DNA of 64,000 nt from Octopus vulgaris. Taxonomy: Eukaryota. How positions within the stretch are numbered: the stretch's first letter is position 1; every line of letters begins with the position of its first letter. The position numbers and the translations under genes were made by a program. The notes beneath the pieces are model-generated. The model was not told where the DNA came from, did not search any database, and saw nothing but the letters and a program-made list of their open reading frames with translations. Below are positions 674 through 62,554 of this stretch, in pieces. The stretch covers positions 39,680,001-39,744,000 of the forward strand of contig OX597833.1 of assembly GCA_951406725.2 (NCBI GenBank), given 5' to 3'.

Positions 674-980
674 TTCAATAATAATATTTAATTGTCATAT
701 TCTCAAATTTACACTTGAAATGCTGCGCTGAAGAGGTGAAATAAGTAAGTAAATATAGACCTTACTCTAATCCCGAAACGCGTTTGTGTCTAATCTAAGT
801 CATGTAGATTCGCTATTTTTTCTCTTTGCCCACGTAAAAAAAAGTGTGTTATAGTCTGGGAGATACTTATGGCAGTGGAAAAAGTATTTTAACTGCTATT
901 TCTAAATTTGGTGTGTGGCGAAGCAATTAGCTGACCCCCTGATTATAATTATGCTTATAATTATAGAATATTTCTGTGTG
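674..980 (+). mobile_element. short Penelope-like element with degenerate hammerhead, flanked by (TA)n
   Basis: CTGAAGA(728-734) GG...CC GAAA(775-778) CGCG TT; inner hairpin agtaag/cttact; 3' end motifs ctgctattt and ccc..ttataatt resemble the element at 4656-4860. Confidence 0.45.
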
Positions 981-1013
981 CATATATATATATATATATA
1001 TATATAATATATA

Positions 1014-1153
1014 TGAGGTGGTATTAAAAAGTTCCCAGACTAGTTCTGTTGCGTGCCAACAGATGGCAGTACACAATTGCATGCACAGTGATAGCTAGTA
1101 GTGACCTTCATGAGGTGATGTGCTGAGTGATATCACTGTATTTACTTTGCAAG
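1014..1153 (+). mobile_element. mariner 5' terminal fragment
   Basis: TA then tgaggtggtattaaaaagttcccagactagttctg; matches the reverse complement of the 4300-4439 end of the mariner at 3532-4439. Confidence 0.7.
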
Positions 1154-1518
1154 TTCAGGTTCAGTCCCACTGTGTGGCACCTTGGGCAAGTGTCTTCTGC
1201 TATAGCCTCAGGCCGACCAAAGCCTTGTGAGTGGATTTGGTAGACGGAAACTGAAAGAAGCCCGTCGTATATATATATATATATGTGTGTGTGCGTGTGT
1301 GTGCGTATATGCTTGTGTGTATGTGTCCCCCCAACATCACTTGACAACCGATGCTGGTGTGTTTACATCCCCATAACTTAGCGGTTCGGCAAAAGAGATC
1401 GATAGAATAAGTACTAGGCTTTCAAAGAATAAGTCCTGGGGTCGATTTGCTTGACTAAAGGCAGTGCTCCAGCATATCTGCAGTCAAAATGACTGAAACA
1501 AGTAAAGGAGTAAAGGAA
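1152..1518 (+). mobile_element. SINE family A (dominant tRNA-derived SINE with internal microsatellite), 5'-truncated
   Basis: ggttcagtcccactg...accttgggcaagtg...(TA/TG)n...gactgaaacaagtaaa tail, shared by more than 20 copies in window. Confidence 0.9.
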
Positions 1519-1558
1519 TGTACATAATTACTCTTCTCTTAAATATAGAAATATATTC

Positions 1559-1997
1559 CTTTATTCTTTTATTCTGTTACTTGTTTCAGTCAGCTGATTG
1601 TGGCCATGCAGGAGAACCACTTTTTAGTTGAAGAAATCGACTACTGGACTTATTCTTTGTAAGCCTGGTCTTTATTCTATCGGTCTCTTCTGCCGAACTG
1701 CTAAGTTATGGGATGTAAACATACCAACATCAGTTGTCAAGTGCTGGTGGGGTGGGGGAAGGACAAACACAGACACAAACACACATAAATATATACTTAT
1801 ATATATATATATATATATATACATACATACAATAGGCTTCTTTCAGTTTCCGTCTACCAAATCCACTCACAAGACTTTGGTCAGCCTGAAGCTATAGTAT
1901 AAGACACTTGCCCAATTTGCCATGCAGCAGAACCATGTGAACTCAGGACCATGTGGTTAGAAAGCAAGCTTCTTACCACACAGCCATGCCTGTGCCT
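1559..1997 (-). mobile_element. SINE family A
   Basis: Full head-to-tail similarity to other family A copies. Confidence 0.9.
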
Positions 1998-2206
1998 ATA
2001 TATATATATATATATATATATATATATATATATATATATATATATATATATATATATATATATATATATATATATATATATATATATATATATATATATA
2101 TATATATGTATATATATATGTATATATATATGTATATATATATATATATATATATATATATATATATATATATATATATATATATATATATATATATATG
2201 TATATA
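1997..2206. repeat. (TA)n microsatellite
   Basis: About 210 bp near-perfect TA repeat. Confidence 0.98.
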
Positions 2207-3140
2207 GTCAAATCAAATAAACAAACAATATCAAACAACAAAAGGACATGTACACAGAATGTAGGTATTAGTTTGATACTCAGTAAAAAGAGAGAGTTTT
2301 TGACATTACATCATCATAATCATCATCATCTTCCTCATCATCCTCATCATCATCATCTTTCATGGGCTTCTGTCATATACCAGTTCCACCTACAAGGCAT
2401 TAGTTGAACCACAGTTCGAGTGGAACACACTTTCACAAGGTACTCTGCAATGAGATAGAACTCAAAACCTCATGGTCACTATGTCAATTATATATCCACA
2501 CTATCCTCCTTGCACCTATGTATGTATGTATGTGTGTGTATGGCTTCCTGCAAATGGTTTTTCAATCTACCACCACAGGTTATTGTCTATCTTTATAATA
2601 CCTTTGTCTAGTTTTGAACATTTCTCTTTATTCCCGGAGTAGATGAAGAGACAAGGTACATTGTGTCAAAATGTTGTCTCATGTTTTCATTAGTTTGTAA
2701 TTTACTAGACTCTCCACAAATATATATTGCTTTTCAAAAGCAAAGTTTTGAACTTAGTGTTGAAAACCATGCTTTAATCAAAGTTAGTTCCAATTGATTC
2801 TATGCAGCTTTATCAATGAGCAACAAAAATCTTGTCCTGCAGGAAATTAGTATTTTGAGAATCAATGAACATCTTCAAAGACCATTCTGTAGCTGTCTGA
2901 GTTTTTCAAAAAGGTGTGATGGTCAAAGAATGCCTAAAAATCTTGAAAAAGCAATAAAAACATGCATGAGCAGGTATAGCTAAATGGTTAAGAAAATTCA
3001 TTCTACAAACATGTGGTCTGGATTCAGTCTCCATGTATGGCACATTGGATGAGGTTTTTTTTATGCAGGCACAGGTAGCTCAGGAAGCTAAGAAAACTTT
3101 TTTAAAGTATATGCATGCATGTATGCATTTATGTATTGCT

Positions 3141-3470
3141 AAGACCCCCTTCTGTCATGACTGACCATGGGTTTGCACCTAAAAAGTTACCCTCCCAGGC
3201 ACAAGTCCAGGCAAGGTTGTTTTATAGAAGACCAGCAGTCGCTCATGCATACCGGCCTCCCCTCTCCATGCAACCAGTATTTTCCAAGGGAAAGGCAAAG
3301 GCCAATACAGCTTGGCACCTGTGACATCGCAACTCATTTCTATAGCTGAGTGAACTGGAGCAATGTGAAATAAAGTGTCTTGCTCAAGAACACAACACGC
3401 ACCCCGGTCTGGGATTCGAACTCACAACCTCATGATTGTAAGCTCAATGCTCTAATCACTAAGCCATGCG
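3141..3470 (-). mobile_element. CORE-type tRNA-derived SINE (OR1/OR2-like)
   Basis: Minus strand: A box tggcttagtga, B box gttcgaatcc, then CORE-like tgtgttcttgagcaagacactttatttcacattgctccagttcactcagct. Confidence 0.8.
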
Positions 3471-3531
3471 AAAAACTCAACATGTATACATACACACATA
3501 CATATATATGTAAGTATTATGTATGTACGTA

Positions 3532-60154: not shown

Positions 60155-60197
60155 TATATACATATATTTAAAAGAGGTTAATTATATAGTCGGTCAT

Positions 60198-60259
60198 AGA
60201 GTAACCAATGGTTTCACATCCATGAAGTGCTTAGCCTTAGAGACAACTCGTTAGACTCC
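60198..60259 (-). ncRNA. degenerate type I hammerhead motif
   Basis: Minus strand GGAGT CTAACGA G...T GAAA CC att GG TT ACTCT; stems I and III pair, core G5 and stem II degraded. Confidence 0.45.
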
Positions 60260-60622
60260 AATGGCTGCTGACATGTAACCTCTCTTCAAACTGGTTTGTG
60301 TTTAATAACTGTTCTGCTGCTACAGGCATGTACATTATCACAAATACCAGTATCTTTTGGATAATATGGAGCTTTATGTTTAAGTTAAAGTGTAAGAGAA
60401 GAGAAAGAGGCTCCAATTTGGAGAGAAGTTATGTGTGTGTGTGTGTGTGTGTGTATACACACATATATATATATATATATATATATATATATATACACAC
60501 ATACACATACACTCATAAACGCATATATATATAAAGATAGATTGGTGGTTTGATAAATGGATCAAGAGATAGATAGACGGATAGACTGATAGATAGATGC
60601 ACAGATAGATAGATATGCACAT

Positions 60623-60711
60623 ATTCTTTTACTCTTTTACTTGTTTCAGTCATTTGACTGTGGCCATGCTGGAGCACCACCTTTAGTCAAGCAACTCGAA
60701 CCCAGGACTTA
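60623..60711 (-). mobile_element. SINE family A tail fragment
   Basis: tactcttttacttgtttcagtcatttgactgtggccatgctggagcacc. Confidence 0.8.
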
Positions 60712-60936
60712 GAATTTTTTTCGAAAAATATTATTCTATATTAGATGTAAATTTAATAGTGTTCACTTCTGGACTCTCTCACTCTGTGAGAGTTTTCAGT
60801 TCGAATCTCACGTGTCTCGAATGGGCTGGAGAATTTCTATTTTGGATATATTTGGGGTGCTTAATTGTGCTCATGACGTGGTGTTTGCTTCTTCCATGGG
60901 TATAAGTAAGTATTTCATTTATTCCTTTGCCACATT

Positions 60937-60990
60937 TATCACTGATGAAGAGAAGGTTCTTATGAATTAACTCTGAAATCGGGTCTGATA
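60937..60990 (+). ncRNA. type I hammerhead ribozyme motif, intact core, in a Penelope-like element (about 60712-61142) ending at (TA)n
   Basis: TATCA CTGATGA AGAG aaggttcttatgaattaa CTCT GAAA TCGG GTC TGATA; perfect 5-bp stem I, 4-bp stem II, GUC triplet. Confidence 0.8.
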
Positions 60991-61330
60991 TGGTAATAAC
61001 GGAATTTTTTTAGAAATTTCTGTTGGCTTTCTTCGAGACACGTACTTATAGTGATAAATTATATGGTTATTGACGAAGTGAGTATTTTCGGCATATTTGG
61101 CATTAGAATTTTTTTCTTTTACCCTTGTTTATAAGTTGTTTGTATATATATATATATATATATATATATATATATATATATATATATATATATATATATA
61201 AGTTTATCATAATCTATCTATCTATCAATATATATGCGTGCGTATATGTATATATATGTATGTGTGTGTGTATATATATCATATACTATATATTATGTAT
61301 CATGCACATTAAAAAGTGGTTTGAATTAAA

Positions 61331-61938
61331 CAAATATGTTTGTGATATAGTTGGACTATAAAAAGGCCATTTTCACTGCAATTTTCCATGGAGAAAATTC
61401 TCACTTTATGAAACAGGTGTCAAGACGCTAATTGTCATTTCATGGCAGCATCTATTAGATTGATAAATGCATTTCTAGCTATCATCAGCACTGAGTACTA
61501 AACAAGCGAAACAATTTTGAAATGACTTTAGAAATTATAGCTTCCTTTGCAGAAAATTAGCAAAAACTTATCAACTCAATTTATCATTCCCAAGCTGGAA
61601 TAAATTATAAATTATGCATGTTAAGCAGTGTTGTGAAGTAAATGAACTTTTAAATCAGTTCAGATATGTTTCTGATATATTTGACTTGTAACATATTCTT
61701 TTTTACTGTAGCTAAACATGAAGAAAATTGTCTAAAGTCATCTCAGAGTAGTCTCTTTTGTGTAGTGCCCAGTATAGATGCTAGCCAAGGAGCTAAAATG
61801 CATTTGTCAGTCTACTAGACGTTCCTCAGAACGACTGATAGTGCTTTGATGTTTATCACCTAAAATGAGAAATTTCTCTATGGCAAACTGCTGTGAAAAT
61901 GGCCTTTTTATGAGTCAAATATGCCGCAAACATATTTG
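61331..61938. mobile_element. MITE with about 80-bp TIRs
   Basis: caaatatgtttgtgat...aaaaaggccattttcac / gtgaaaatggccttttt...gcaaacatatttg; superfamily not determined. Confidence 0.8.
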
Positions 61939-62211
61939 AACAGATGTAAAACTTTGTGTGTGTGAGTGTGTGGAGGGCTTGTTTGTGAGTGTATATATAT
62001 GTATATACATTTATATATATGCATATATATATATATATATATACATATACACACACACATATACATACATATATATATATATATATATTATATATATATA
62101 TATATATATATATATATATATATATATATATATATATATATATATATATATATGTATGTATTTATGCATGTATGTATGTATTCAAATATGAATTAGGAGC
62201 AGCTCCAGGTA

Positions 62212-62554
62212 TATAAACAAGAACACATATACACAAGGTAAGTTTGTTGCTAGTTAATGGGTCACCTGCAGTTTTTAGGTATAAGAGATTATATTCTCTA
62301 TGCACCTAGTGTAAAAGGAGACCACTCACAGCAGATCTTTTCATGGAGTCAAAGTAAGTCAAAACAATAATGAAACCTTGATGTCTGTCACTCAGAGAAG
62401 GGACCTGATGAGCTGTCTTGTTTGATTGTGACTTATCTTCAGGAGTTTTTTTTACATCAGGCACATAGAGAATATATTCTCTTACACTTAAAAACTGCAG
62501 TTGACCCATGAACTAACAATACACATTTCTTTATGTGTATTCAATTTTGTATAT
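62212..62554. repeat. fold-back, core arms about 70 bp extending to about 105 bp
   Basis: 62247-62316 is the reverse complement of 62450-62519 with scattered mismatches. Confidence 0.85.

Follow-up and report, generated by a model that had tools for sequence, protein, structure and literature searches.

Hammerhead motifs in the window and the families that carry them

A 64,000-nt stretch of the Octopus vulgaris genome (GCA_951406725.2, contig OX597833.1, positions 39,680,001–39,744,000, forward strand), referred to as the window, contains 12 scattered sites resembling hammerhead ribozymes, which raises the question of whether these motifs are real and what kind of element carries them. The 12 sites were assigned to ten high-copy repeat families (A to J), and the majority sequence of every family formed a full type I hammerhead with core boxes, an NUH triplet, and paired stems I and II. 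The motifs are very probably, for the most part, decayed type I hammerheads at the 3' ends of ten families of the Penelope-like element (PLE) kind, of which four are coding (B, E, H, and I), five are ORF-less (A, C, D, F, and J), and one (G) is ambiguous. The five ORF-less families are likely units that depend on PLE enzymes. The hammerhead/PLE system as such is not new, and the preliminary description of this DNA had correctly associated type I hammerheads of many families with Penelope elements; PLE coding sequence lies upstream in four of the ten. The family structure, the PLE-coding link, fixed 3' ends, (TA)n bias, inverted pieces, and circular permutation were observed at the sequence level, and the pattern agrees with the available parts of PMC4209133, PMC7229834, PMC8557442, and bioRxiv 10.64898/2026.07.22.740005. 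The copies in the window were as follows.

684..973, +: family F copy; core from 728, cleavage predicted before 785; both boxes intact, pairing in stem I weakened
4655..5150, -: family A copy of about one unit; core from 4842, predicted cut 5' of 4795; boxes intact, one stem III change
5151..5213, +: inverted family A piece that adjoins the preceding copy on its 5' side and forms a PLE-type inverted junction, by comparison with the A majority
5289..5496, +: family B, from the 3' end of a Neptune-like PLE; core from 5358; GAAA box mutated
13940..14059, +: family I, likewise from the 3' end of a Neptune-like PLE; broken off within stem II, so that the ribozyme is absent here
14330..14620, -: family G copy; core from 14557, mutated
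14875..14978, +: family B fragment overlooked in the preliminary description; starts at the predicted cut site
24762..25085, +: copy of the ORF-less family D; core from 24844, mutated at three positions
52620..52828, +: family B copy; core from 52692, cleavage predicted before 52719; both boxes intact, stem III no longer palindromic
53803..54215, +: family D copy truncated within the ribozyme; direct part 53968-54215, inverted piece 53803-53977
55565..58654, +: family E, one 5'-truncated Hydra-type PLE; GIY-YIG coding remnant at 55565-55903 and 57189 to ~57530; 3' region to 58654
55905-57188 (mariner), ~57735-57933 and 57999-58375 (SINE-like): inserts splitting the family E copy
58491..58600, +: family E hammerhead with a 77-nt stem II region; core from 58497, cleavage predicted before 58593; damage in stem I
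60155..60295, -: family H, from the 3' end of a Hydra-type PLE; core from 60254; G5 mutated
60720..61140, +: family C copy (ORF-less unit); core from 60942, predicted cut before 60991; best-preserved ribozyme of the window
62122..62641, +: copy of the ORF-less family J, which has a U3-A8 core; direct part 62355-62641, broken off within the core, and inverted piece 62122-62316

Both core boxes were kept in five of the 12 window copies (724, 4790, 52687, 58491, and 60937), the core was mutated relative to the family majority in four, and three copies break off within the ribozyme (13940, 53976, and 62355). Among the sites initially regarded as strong, the core is broken at 14481 (CCAAUGA), 24837 (CUAAGGA, with UAAA and a CC triplet), 60198 (CUAACGA), and 5353 (GAAG); the majorities of their families are nevertheless complete, and in every case the majority was closer to a hammerhead than the window copy. 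As most window copies are decayed, "self-cleaving" is a prediction that fits the source elements at best. The sites at 5353-5387 and 52687-52721, described as paralogous, are indeed both family B. The minus-strand motif reported at 62324-62446 was rejected as a feature of its family: the J majority has no CUGANGA there, the 3' half of the motif comes from an inversion junction, and the real J hammerhead lies on the plus strand.

Stem sequences differed between loci and still paired, as had been noted. When the innermost four pairs of stem I were compared across families, each family's own combination paired (10/10), and crossed combinations paired in 2 of 90 cases. A compensatory C-G/G-C change was present in stem II of family D (12 and 8 of 25 copies). 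Stem III was self-complementary in B to G and J, with one central mismatch in A and H; in family I it was ACGT in the exact matches, with CpG decay in the 20-copy majority. In B and I the stem takes its minimal form of 4 nt. Duplex energies of stem III ranged from -6 to -15 kcal/mol in eight families, with almost no hairpin energy, and a short or palindromic stem III of this kind is predicted to suit dimer formation.

Coding families

Longer copies of B (5353, 52687), E (58491), H (60198), and I (13940) contain PLE RT and/or GIY-YIG coding sequence upstream, and thus the window copies are 5'-truncated ends of coding elements. The earlier view of the hosts as non-coding units of 100–550 bp was therefore wrong for at least these four families. 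PLE coding sequence was found upstream on the same strand at 11 of 31 loci for E and 16 of 88 for I, and at 2 of 24 loci for H by tblastn (4/4 of those read by eye). For family B it was found in two loci (L357 and L348); a B spacer of 1.4 kb is collinear in L351, and in L357 there is a CA-rich 3' spacer of ~1.3 kb. The coding parent of B was present at one of the first 30 loci, 1.5 kb away; since it is so rare and distant, ORF-free 1.5-kb flanks are compatible with coding parents for other families as well. Upstream of E and H, the endonuclease part was seen and the RT core was not. A Pfam search of five ORFs gave one sub-threshold GIY-YIG match (E 0.01), and the coding link rests on motifs and tblastn.

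Among the C-terminal-endonuclease PLEs (Craig et al. 2021, PMC8557442, in its available parts), Hydra and Neptune share with these families a hammerhead near the 3' end and (TA)n targets. The E translations have, like Hydra, a CxCx5C linker, CxxC and CxH (around conserved E and N), and no cysteines within GIY-YIG; CCHH is absent from them. Those of I and B have, like Neptune, a CxxCxxC-type linker and cysteines within GIY-YIG. Judged by motifs in broken, partial coding sequence, E and H thus resemble Hydra, and B and I resemble Neptune, with the reservation that these motifs alone do not separate Neptune from Nematis. Set beside these clades, B has a CA-rich 3' spacer and, in its short copies, a sharp preferred 5' boundary.

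Terminal redundancy was almost nil (B 0/30, E 1/25, H 0/5, and I 1/20), and B, E, H, and I are not non-coding tandem units of the kind that defines non-LTR retrozymes. A GIY-YIG remnant had been reported in the window as the trace of a mobilizing enzyme; the remnant is present, and it is the body of the E copy at 58491, not a separate helper.

Core variants in families I and B

Families I and B are the two most copy-rich in the sample, and I is the most abundant of all. In family I, core position A6, which is otherwise nearly invariant in hammerheads, is occupied by U: 17,212 exact matches had U and 199 had A, out of 17,411. The family otherwise keeps all core positions and the stems, and position 7 varies freely, with each of the four bases occurring among subfamilies. 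Its sister family B has A6 and either U4 or C4, with C4 in approximately three quarters of the first 100 matches listed (counted by hand). Among natural core variants (Perreault et al. 2011, PMC3088659), U3-A8 covariation, U4C, and a poorly active A6C were already known; A6U is absent from the available text of that source, whose variants are rare singletons compared with the more than 17,000 copies of family I. An abundant family with U at position 6 is likewise not described in the available parts of PMC4209133.

We tentatively suggest that family I is a natural A6U ribozyme still cleaving as a dimer through an undescribed compensation, or that its fold is kept for a non-catalytic job in retrotransposition. 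It is possible, though we regard it as doubtful, that the ribozymes of the most successful families in general are no longer catalytic and persist as structural signals for RNA pairing or enzyme recognition. The prevalence of U6 in I and of C4 among the listed B matches points that way, as do the low activity of natural A6C and the spread of Naiad PLEs without canonical hammerheads (PMC8557442, available parts). Copy ends also ignore the cut site: 5' ends fell within 5 nt of the predicted cut in 3 of 125 copies, which is about chance, and one of 28 incidental B pieces (14875..14978) started at it; copy ends thus bear no sign of cleavage. Against this reading, the otherwise intact core and stems of I, with position 7 free, are the pattern of a maintained hammerhead fold, and non-CpG core positions vary less than the flanks in A, B, C, F, and G (not in D and E). 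Family B offers a built-in comparison for the hammerhead role in Penelope elements and, if the suggestion for family I is true, comparing I with B would directly test what hammerheads do for these elements.

ORF-less families

The units of A, C, D, F, and J have periods of approximately 492, 477, 357, 540, and 351 bp, respectively, and their longest ATG ORFs are 28–63 aa. They are circularly permuted, with same-strand repeats at a single period and one type I hammerhead per unit. Copies exceeding a single unit were found for A (18/25), C (23/30), D (9/25), F (6/25), and J (6/20), and copies spanning two cut sites for A (5/25), C (3/30, two of these rows being one array), and J (1/20), and none for D or F (0/25 each). 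No copy in the window spans two cut sites. The original proposal of non-autonomous, retrozyme-like elements probably holds for these five families, as known from genomic sequence, and fails for the coding ends of B, E, H, and I. For none of the five was an autonomous partner found.

Could all ten families be ends of coding PLEs, with the ORF-less arrays being local tandem duplications of solo pLTRs that never moved by themselves? Family B seemed non-coding until a rare long copy emerged, and flanks were compared over 1.5 kb only. We nevertheless consider this account improbable, as most of the best A and C copies, which are dispersed over many contigs, exceed one unit, and the sequence upstream of A and C is the unit's own 3' part, not an ORF. 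Such copies need an ORF-less multimeric or circular template.

The opposite account, in which all families are non-autonomous retrozymes spreading by hammerhead-cut, re-joined circular RNA, is less probable still. The five ORF-less, permuted, often longer-than-unit families speak for it, as do a family C array with an intact core in both aligned units (L021/L023) and a tandem array of another family in L247. As a blanket claim it is refuted by B, E, H, and I, which extend into PLE coding sequence with hardly any terminal redundancy, and longer-than-unit copies would arise equally well from uncut tandem transcripts.

The preferred division into coding and ORF-less families leaves A, C, D, F, and J close to the metazoan non-LTR retrozymes (Cervera and de la Pena 2020, PMC7229834; bioRxiv 10.64898/2026.07.22.740005; available parts of both). 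They share ORF-less units (351–540 bp here), one type I hammerhead per unit, monomers and tandems, and PLEs as the likely mobilizer. Unlike those retrozymes, they occur mostly as dispersed copies of ~0.5–1.7 units with PLE-style inverted pieces rather than as long arrays, and their circular RNA and cleavage are putative; the sequences compared come from assembled contigs, none of them on record as RNA. In the available text of the second source, Li, Clavereau and Pollet (2026) define a retrozyme by at least two consecutive complete hammerheads. Family G (24 loci) shared upstream sequence to ~260 bp past the query, with no ORF match and no unit repeat.

Insertion marks and a probable mechanism

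Variable 5' truncation, (TA)n bias, and inverted 5' pieces, the marks of endonuclease-bearing PLEs, were found across families. An inverted piece lay directly upstream in A (8/25), C (9/30), D (10/25), F (11/25), G (6/20), and J (6/20) and was rare in B, E, and I. The preference for (TA)n noted at the outset was confirmed, with (TA)3 at the 3' end in I (20/20), B (23/30), E (14/25), and F (12/25) compared with a background of 8%; for D (6/25), J (4/20), and G (4/20) the preference was weak.

We infer that a PLE GIY-YIG endonuclease would nick (TA)n DNA, and that the PLE RT would start copying at a fixed zone ~65–260 nt downstream of the ribozyme and pass through it. An early stop would leave the stubs of B, E, H, and I, whereas on tandem or circular unit RNA the RT could overrun its own start and give the longer-than-unit copies of A, C, D, F, and J; copying may sometimes leave an inverted piece. 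The ribozyme of the source element would cut tandem transcripts as a dimer via its self-complementary stem III. Enzyme borrowing, dimer cleavage, and the choice between a circle and an uncut tandem template are the presumptive steps of this scheme.

Abundance and significance

A strict hammerhead descriptor matched the window twice (60936-60996, +; 4790-4848, -) and none of 30 local dinucleotide shuffles; the motifs do lie where they were first listed, and they exceed chance. With one core mismatch allowed, there were five matches compared with a mean of 0.6 in eight shuffles; two of the five were low-complexity sequence outside the original list. In 600 kb sampled elsewhere, 34 descriptor matches were found, which extrapolates to approximately 125,000–160,000 genome-wide; 18 canonical matches in this sample contrasted with 0 in five shuffles. 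The window is therefore not enriched, and the dense population described for it reflects a hammerhead density ordinary for this genome. Monomer folds of single window copies reached z < -2 relative to shuffles in 2 of 8 cases, and no hammerhead was among the 150 Rfam matches listed of 381 weak ones. Chance matching in repeat-rich DNA has a negligible probability: in six of eight cases a decayed copy folded by itself did not surpass shuffled sequence, and a junction artefact accounts for the 62324 motif, but shuffles of both samples gave no strict or canonical match, reversed-pattern controls gave 0 matches genome-wide, and family majorities improve every window copy.

The pLTR hammerheads of metazoan PLEs (Cervera and de la Pena 2014, available parts of PMC4209133) share with those of the octopus the type I topology, a short stem I, a short or palindromic stem III, an unpaired base after A9 (here in B, D, G, and I), and the U3-A8 core variant (here in J). 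Both sets comprise many sequence families per genome, mostly single motifs of truncated PLEs, with nearby opposite-strand pairs. Stem II regions here differ in reaching 77 nt (E), and the estimated count is well above the ~9,000 for Xenopus. Octopus is absent from one of the two supplementary files of that study.

The role of the hammerhead in Penelope elements is treated as an open question in the available parts of the literature cited. This genome offers parallel coding and non-coding families with canonical, U4C, A6U, and U3-A8 cores in thousands of copies each, and so the role becomes testable by comparing activity with copy success. A 2026 repeat annotation of Octopus vulgaris (PMC13282606) includes Penelope-like families; a word search of its main text found no "hammerhead", "ribozyme", or "retrozyme". 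A sizeable class of octopus repeats would accordingly seem to be unrecognized ribozyme-bearing PLE debris, and the genome may contain more than 100,000 intact-looking hammerheads.

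Ten hammerhead families and their majority sequences

Each motif site named in the preliminary description was searched against the genome assembly (2.8 Gb, 227 contigs), with 40 copies scored from 265 to 4,053 first-look candidates per search, and all of the sites were members of repeat families. The ten families were labelled A to J, and their majority sequences were derived from alignments of the 20–30 best copies. For family H, 15 of the 20 loci from the initial query corresponded to an unrelated neighbouring repeat; these were set aside, and a new query was used.

Families with a type I hammerhead, with unit period and copies exceeding one unit for A, C, D, F, and J
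Family; site in the window; period; copies exceeding one unit
A; 4790; 492 bp; 18/25
B; 5353 and 52687; –; –
C; 60937; 477 bp; 23/30 (two rows are one array)
D; 24837 and 53976; 357 bp; 9/25
E; 58491; –; –
F; 724; 540 bp; 6/25
G; 14481; –; –
H; 60198; –; –
I; 13940; –; –
J; 62324; 351 bp; 6/20

A complete hammerhead was restored in the majority sequence of all ten families. The stems had been described as differing between loci while still pairing, and this was borne out: the innermost four pairs of stem I formed in 10/10 own combinations versus 2/90 crossed ones. A compensatory change was observed in stem II of family D (C-G in 12/25 and G-C in 8/25 copies). Stem III was self-complementary, and the duplex was much favoured over the hairpin in the eight families with a stem III longer than 4 nt.

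Motifs in the window

The window has a GC content of 37% with many microsatellites and short repeats, and the motifs were therein found beyond chance. A strict type I descriptor gave two matches (60936-60996, forward strand; 4790-4848, reverse strand), and none of 30 local dinucleotide shuffles gave any. When one core mismatch was permitted, five matches were obtained versus a mean of 0.6 in eight shuffles, the additional ones being 60198 and two low-complexity matches. The copy at 60937 was the sole one in the window to pass a descriptor requiring the palindrome. No hammerhead was found among the 150 of 381 Rfam matches listed for the window, nearly all of which were miRNA models driven by microsatellites; on the genome, RF00163 gave at least six matches from 73 scored among 263,217 candidates, which does not amount to a genome count.

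Most of the window's own hammerhead copies are damaged: among 12 copies, five kept both core boxes, four had core mutations, and three were cut off inside the ribozyme. The motif reported on the reverse strand at 62324 was rejected, as it straddles an inversion junction and is absent from the majority of family J, whose ribozyme lies on the opposite strand and has a U3-A8 core in 12/20 copies. An F-related 3' fragment beside an inverted D piece (53688-53796, reverse strand) was missing from the preliminary description.

Coding Penelope-like families

Judged from their sequence context, families B, E, H, and I are the ends of coding Penelope-like elements (PLEs). Longer copies of family E were collinear into an ORF (11/31 loci) that encodes a GIY-YIG-like core together with a CxCx5C linker and the motifs CxxC and CxH; CxCx5C, CxxC, and CxH are the same motifs given for the Hydra clade in the available text of Craig et al. 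(PMC8557442). Family H lies downstream of a Hydra-type endonuclease tail, which was detected by tblastn in 2/24 loci and by eye in 4/4, and family I runs into Neptune-type RT-thumb and GIY-YIG sequence (16/88 loci). As the GIY-YIG matches of the PLE remnants to Pfam/NCBIfam were sub-threshold and confined to one ORF, the four families were assigned from motifs and tblastn.

Family B had no coding sequence within 1.3 kb (0/56 loci), and most of its copies shared a sharp 5' boundary approximately 110 nt upstream of the cut, the predicted self-cleavage site. A reading of B as a defined non-autonomous element was dropped once a coding parent appeared: an endonuclease tail was located 1.35 kb upstream in locus L040, RT-thumb and GIY-YIG sequence was present in L357 (extended) and L348, and the spacer was collinear in L351.

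GIY-YIG remnants are present in the window, as had been noted, but they are not separate from the hammerheads. The family E element spans the following interval with its inserts, and the remnant is thus the body of the copy carrying the 58491 ribozyme.

55565-58654, family E element, split by one mariner and two SINE-like inserts

The mariner within its GIY-YIG coding part (55905-57188, Pfam Transposase_1) is 94% identical to a second mariner copy at 33289-34570.

ORF-less families

Families A, C, D, F, and J were ORF-less and circularly permuted, with their own 3' part found upstream of the unit, and the longest ATG ORFs on their closed units encoded 28-63 aa. The proposed non-autonomous population is supported for these five families but not for B, E, H, and I, which continue into PLE coding sequence. 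In 24 loci of family G, no ORF and no unit repeat were found. An inverted piece was located directly upstream in 30-44% of the loci of the five ORF-less families.

Families F and C were also considered as ends of coding elements. Of the loci L152, L018, L036, and L205, the first three were inspected, and this reading was rejected because their upstream ORFs are parts of other elements. Upstream of the C copy in L018 lies another PLE end of Hydra-like type; it has its own hammerhead and a 3' region of approximately 1.1 kb, and the (TA)n after it is the insertion place of the C copy.

A different hammerhead family forms an array at approximately 2300-4600 of locus L247 (G000:C1 near 20,003,000), with five identical motifs on one strand, 353-359 bp apart, and two on the other. 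This array looks young and makes a stronger candidate active retrozyme than any copy in the window.

Copy ends and copying

The 3' ends of the five ORF-less families clustered approximately 140-270 nt beyond the cut, and the 5' ends were scattered. The statement that the hosts abut (TA)n was upheld for the 3' ends of A (16/25), C (20/30), and F (12/25), but the counts were low in D (6/25) and J (4/20). A cleavage footprint in the insertion ends was rejected, as the ends did not pile up at the cut: among 125 targeted copies, three 5' ends and no 3' ends lay within 5 nt of it, and incidental pieces with such an end numbered 1/28 in B and 0/50 in I. Spanning of the cut is no evidence here, because the choice of query made the targeted copies span it. 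One family B fragment starts exactly at the predicted cut.

14875-14978, family B fragment, after a (TA)n run

As this is one of 28 incidental B pieces, it is compatible with chance.

From the copy-end footprint and the literature, we infer a PLE-type target-primed copying step that would start at (TA)n, within a fixed zone past the ribozyme on its downstream side, and stop at variable positions. Because the copy ends do not mark the cut, the template would be uncut tandem RNA or re-joined RNA, which are indistinguishable from DNA alone. In the available literature excerpts, such motifs are proposed to cleave tandem transcripts as dimers, a role that would fit the stem III palindromes. In the assembled contigs of four sequencing runs presumed to be RNA, none of them on record as such, all 29 bins of the C copy were covered at 85% likeness, and molecule starts or ends did not accumulate at any position, which is evidence neither way.

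Families A and C have a short motif block in common near the unit junction, approximately 150-260 nt past the cut, and each has two 3'-end clusters approximately 80-110 nt apart. One PLE enzyme may recognise this block in both families.

Core variants

In family I, position 6 was U in 17,212 matches versus A in 199 on the same background, and all four bases occurred at position 7. Its stems covary against its relative B; the window copy is truncated and does not include the A6U part. In the available text of the literature on hammerhead variants, the known natural core variants were U4C, U3-A8, and A6C, the last with low activity, and A6U was not found; it may be in print in Luense et al. 2017. 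The A6U family is the one point of interest to a ribozyme specialist. By hand count, C4 occurred in approximately three-quarters of the 100 family B matches listed first, and C4 forms were also present in D, E, and G.

Abundance

Sixty 10-kb stretches at round coordinates (not random draws) on 27 contigs were sampled. The 600 kb contained 18 canonical, six U4C, seven A6U, and three U3-A8 matches, versus shuffle means of 0, 0, 0.2, and 0.2, respectively, and no A6G or A6C matches. As seven matches come from one array, the density is 27-34 per 0.6 Mb, which extrapolates to roughly 125,000-160,000 hammerheads genome-wide, with wide sampling error. The dense population proposed for the window did not amount to an enrichment: with the same descriptor, the window gave one match in 64 kb and the sampled stretches gave 34 in 600 kb. 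Exact pattern counts set firm lower bounds of at least 13,475 for B and at least 17,212 for I, with reversed controls at zero. A tight J pattern gave three exact matches and was too strict for counting that older family. Besides J, the U3-A8 core was also observed in another, separate family at loci L265 and L272 (three matches in 600 kb).

The available portions of the literature give counts, obtained by differing methods, of about 9,000 in Xenopus (PMC4209133), over 6,000 in coral, about 5,000 in mussel, and up to 120,000 in axolotl (a figure from a section title), and 235 Rfam hammerheads in giant squid.

Relation to known systems

As far as the available text of the sources goes, the octopus families match minimal PLE hammerheads (PMC4209133), the ORF-less families match non-LTR retrozymes (PMC7229834; bioRxiv 10.64898/2026.07.22.740005), and the coding families resemble Hydra and Neptune PLEs (PMC8557442). 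A literature search on octopus and cephalopod hammerheads retrieved no description of these families from octopus. The kind of system is already known.

Other repeats in the window

A 280-bp inverted repeat encloses a repeat array (TTAGGG and TTTTAGGG) of approximately 200 bp and looks like a non-autonomous DNA element with an internal telomere-like array. A decayed transposase and a tRNA match, which probably marks where a tRNA-derived SINE has its head, were also identified.

31266-32048, inverted repeat, arms 31266-31546 and 31769-32048, 91% identical
~58900-59800, decayed Tc1-type transposase (Pfam DDE_3, E 4e-11)
37634-37703, reverse strand, Rfam tRNA match (37.9 bits, over the gathering score)
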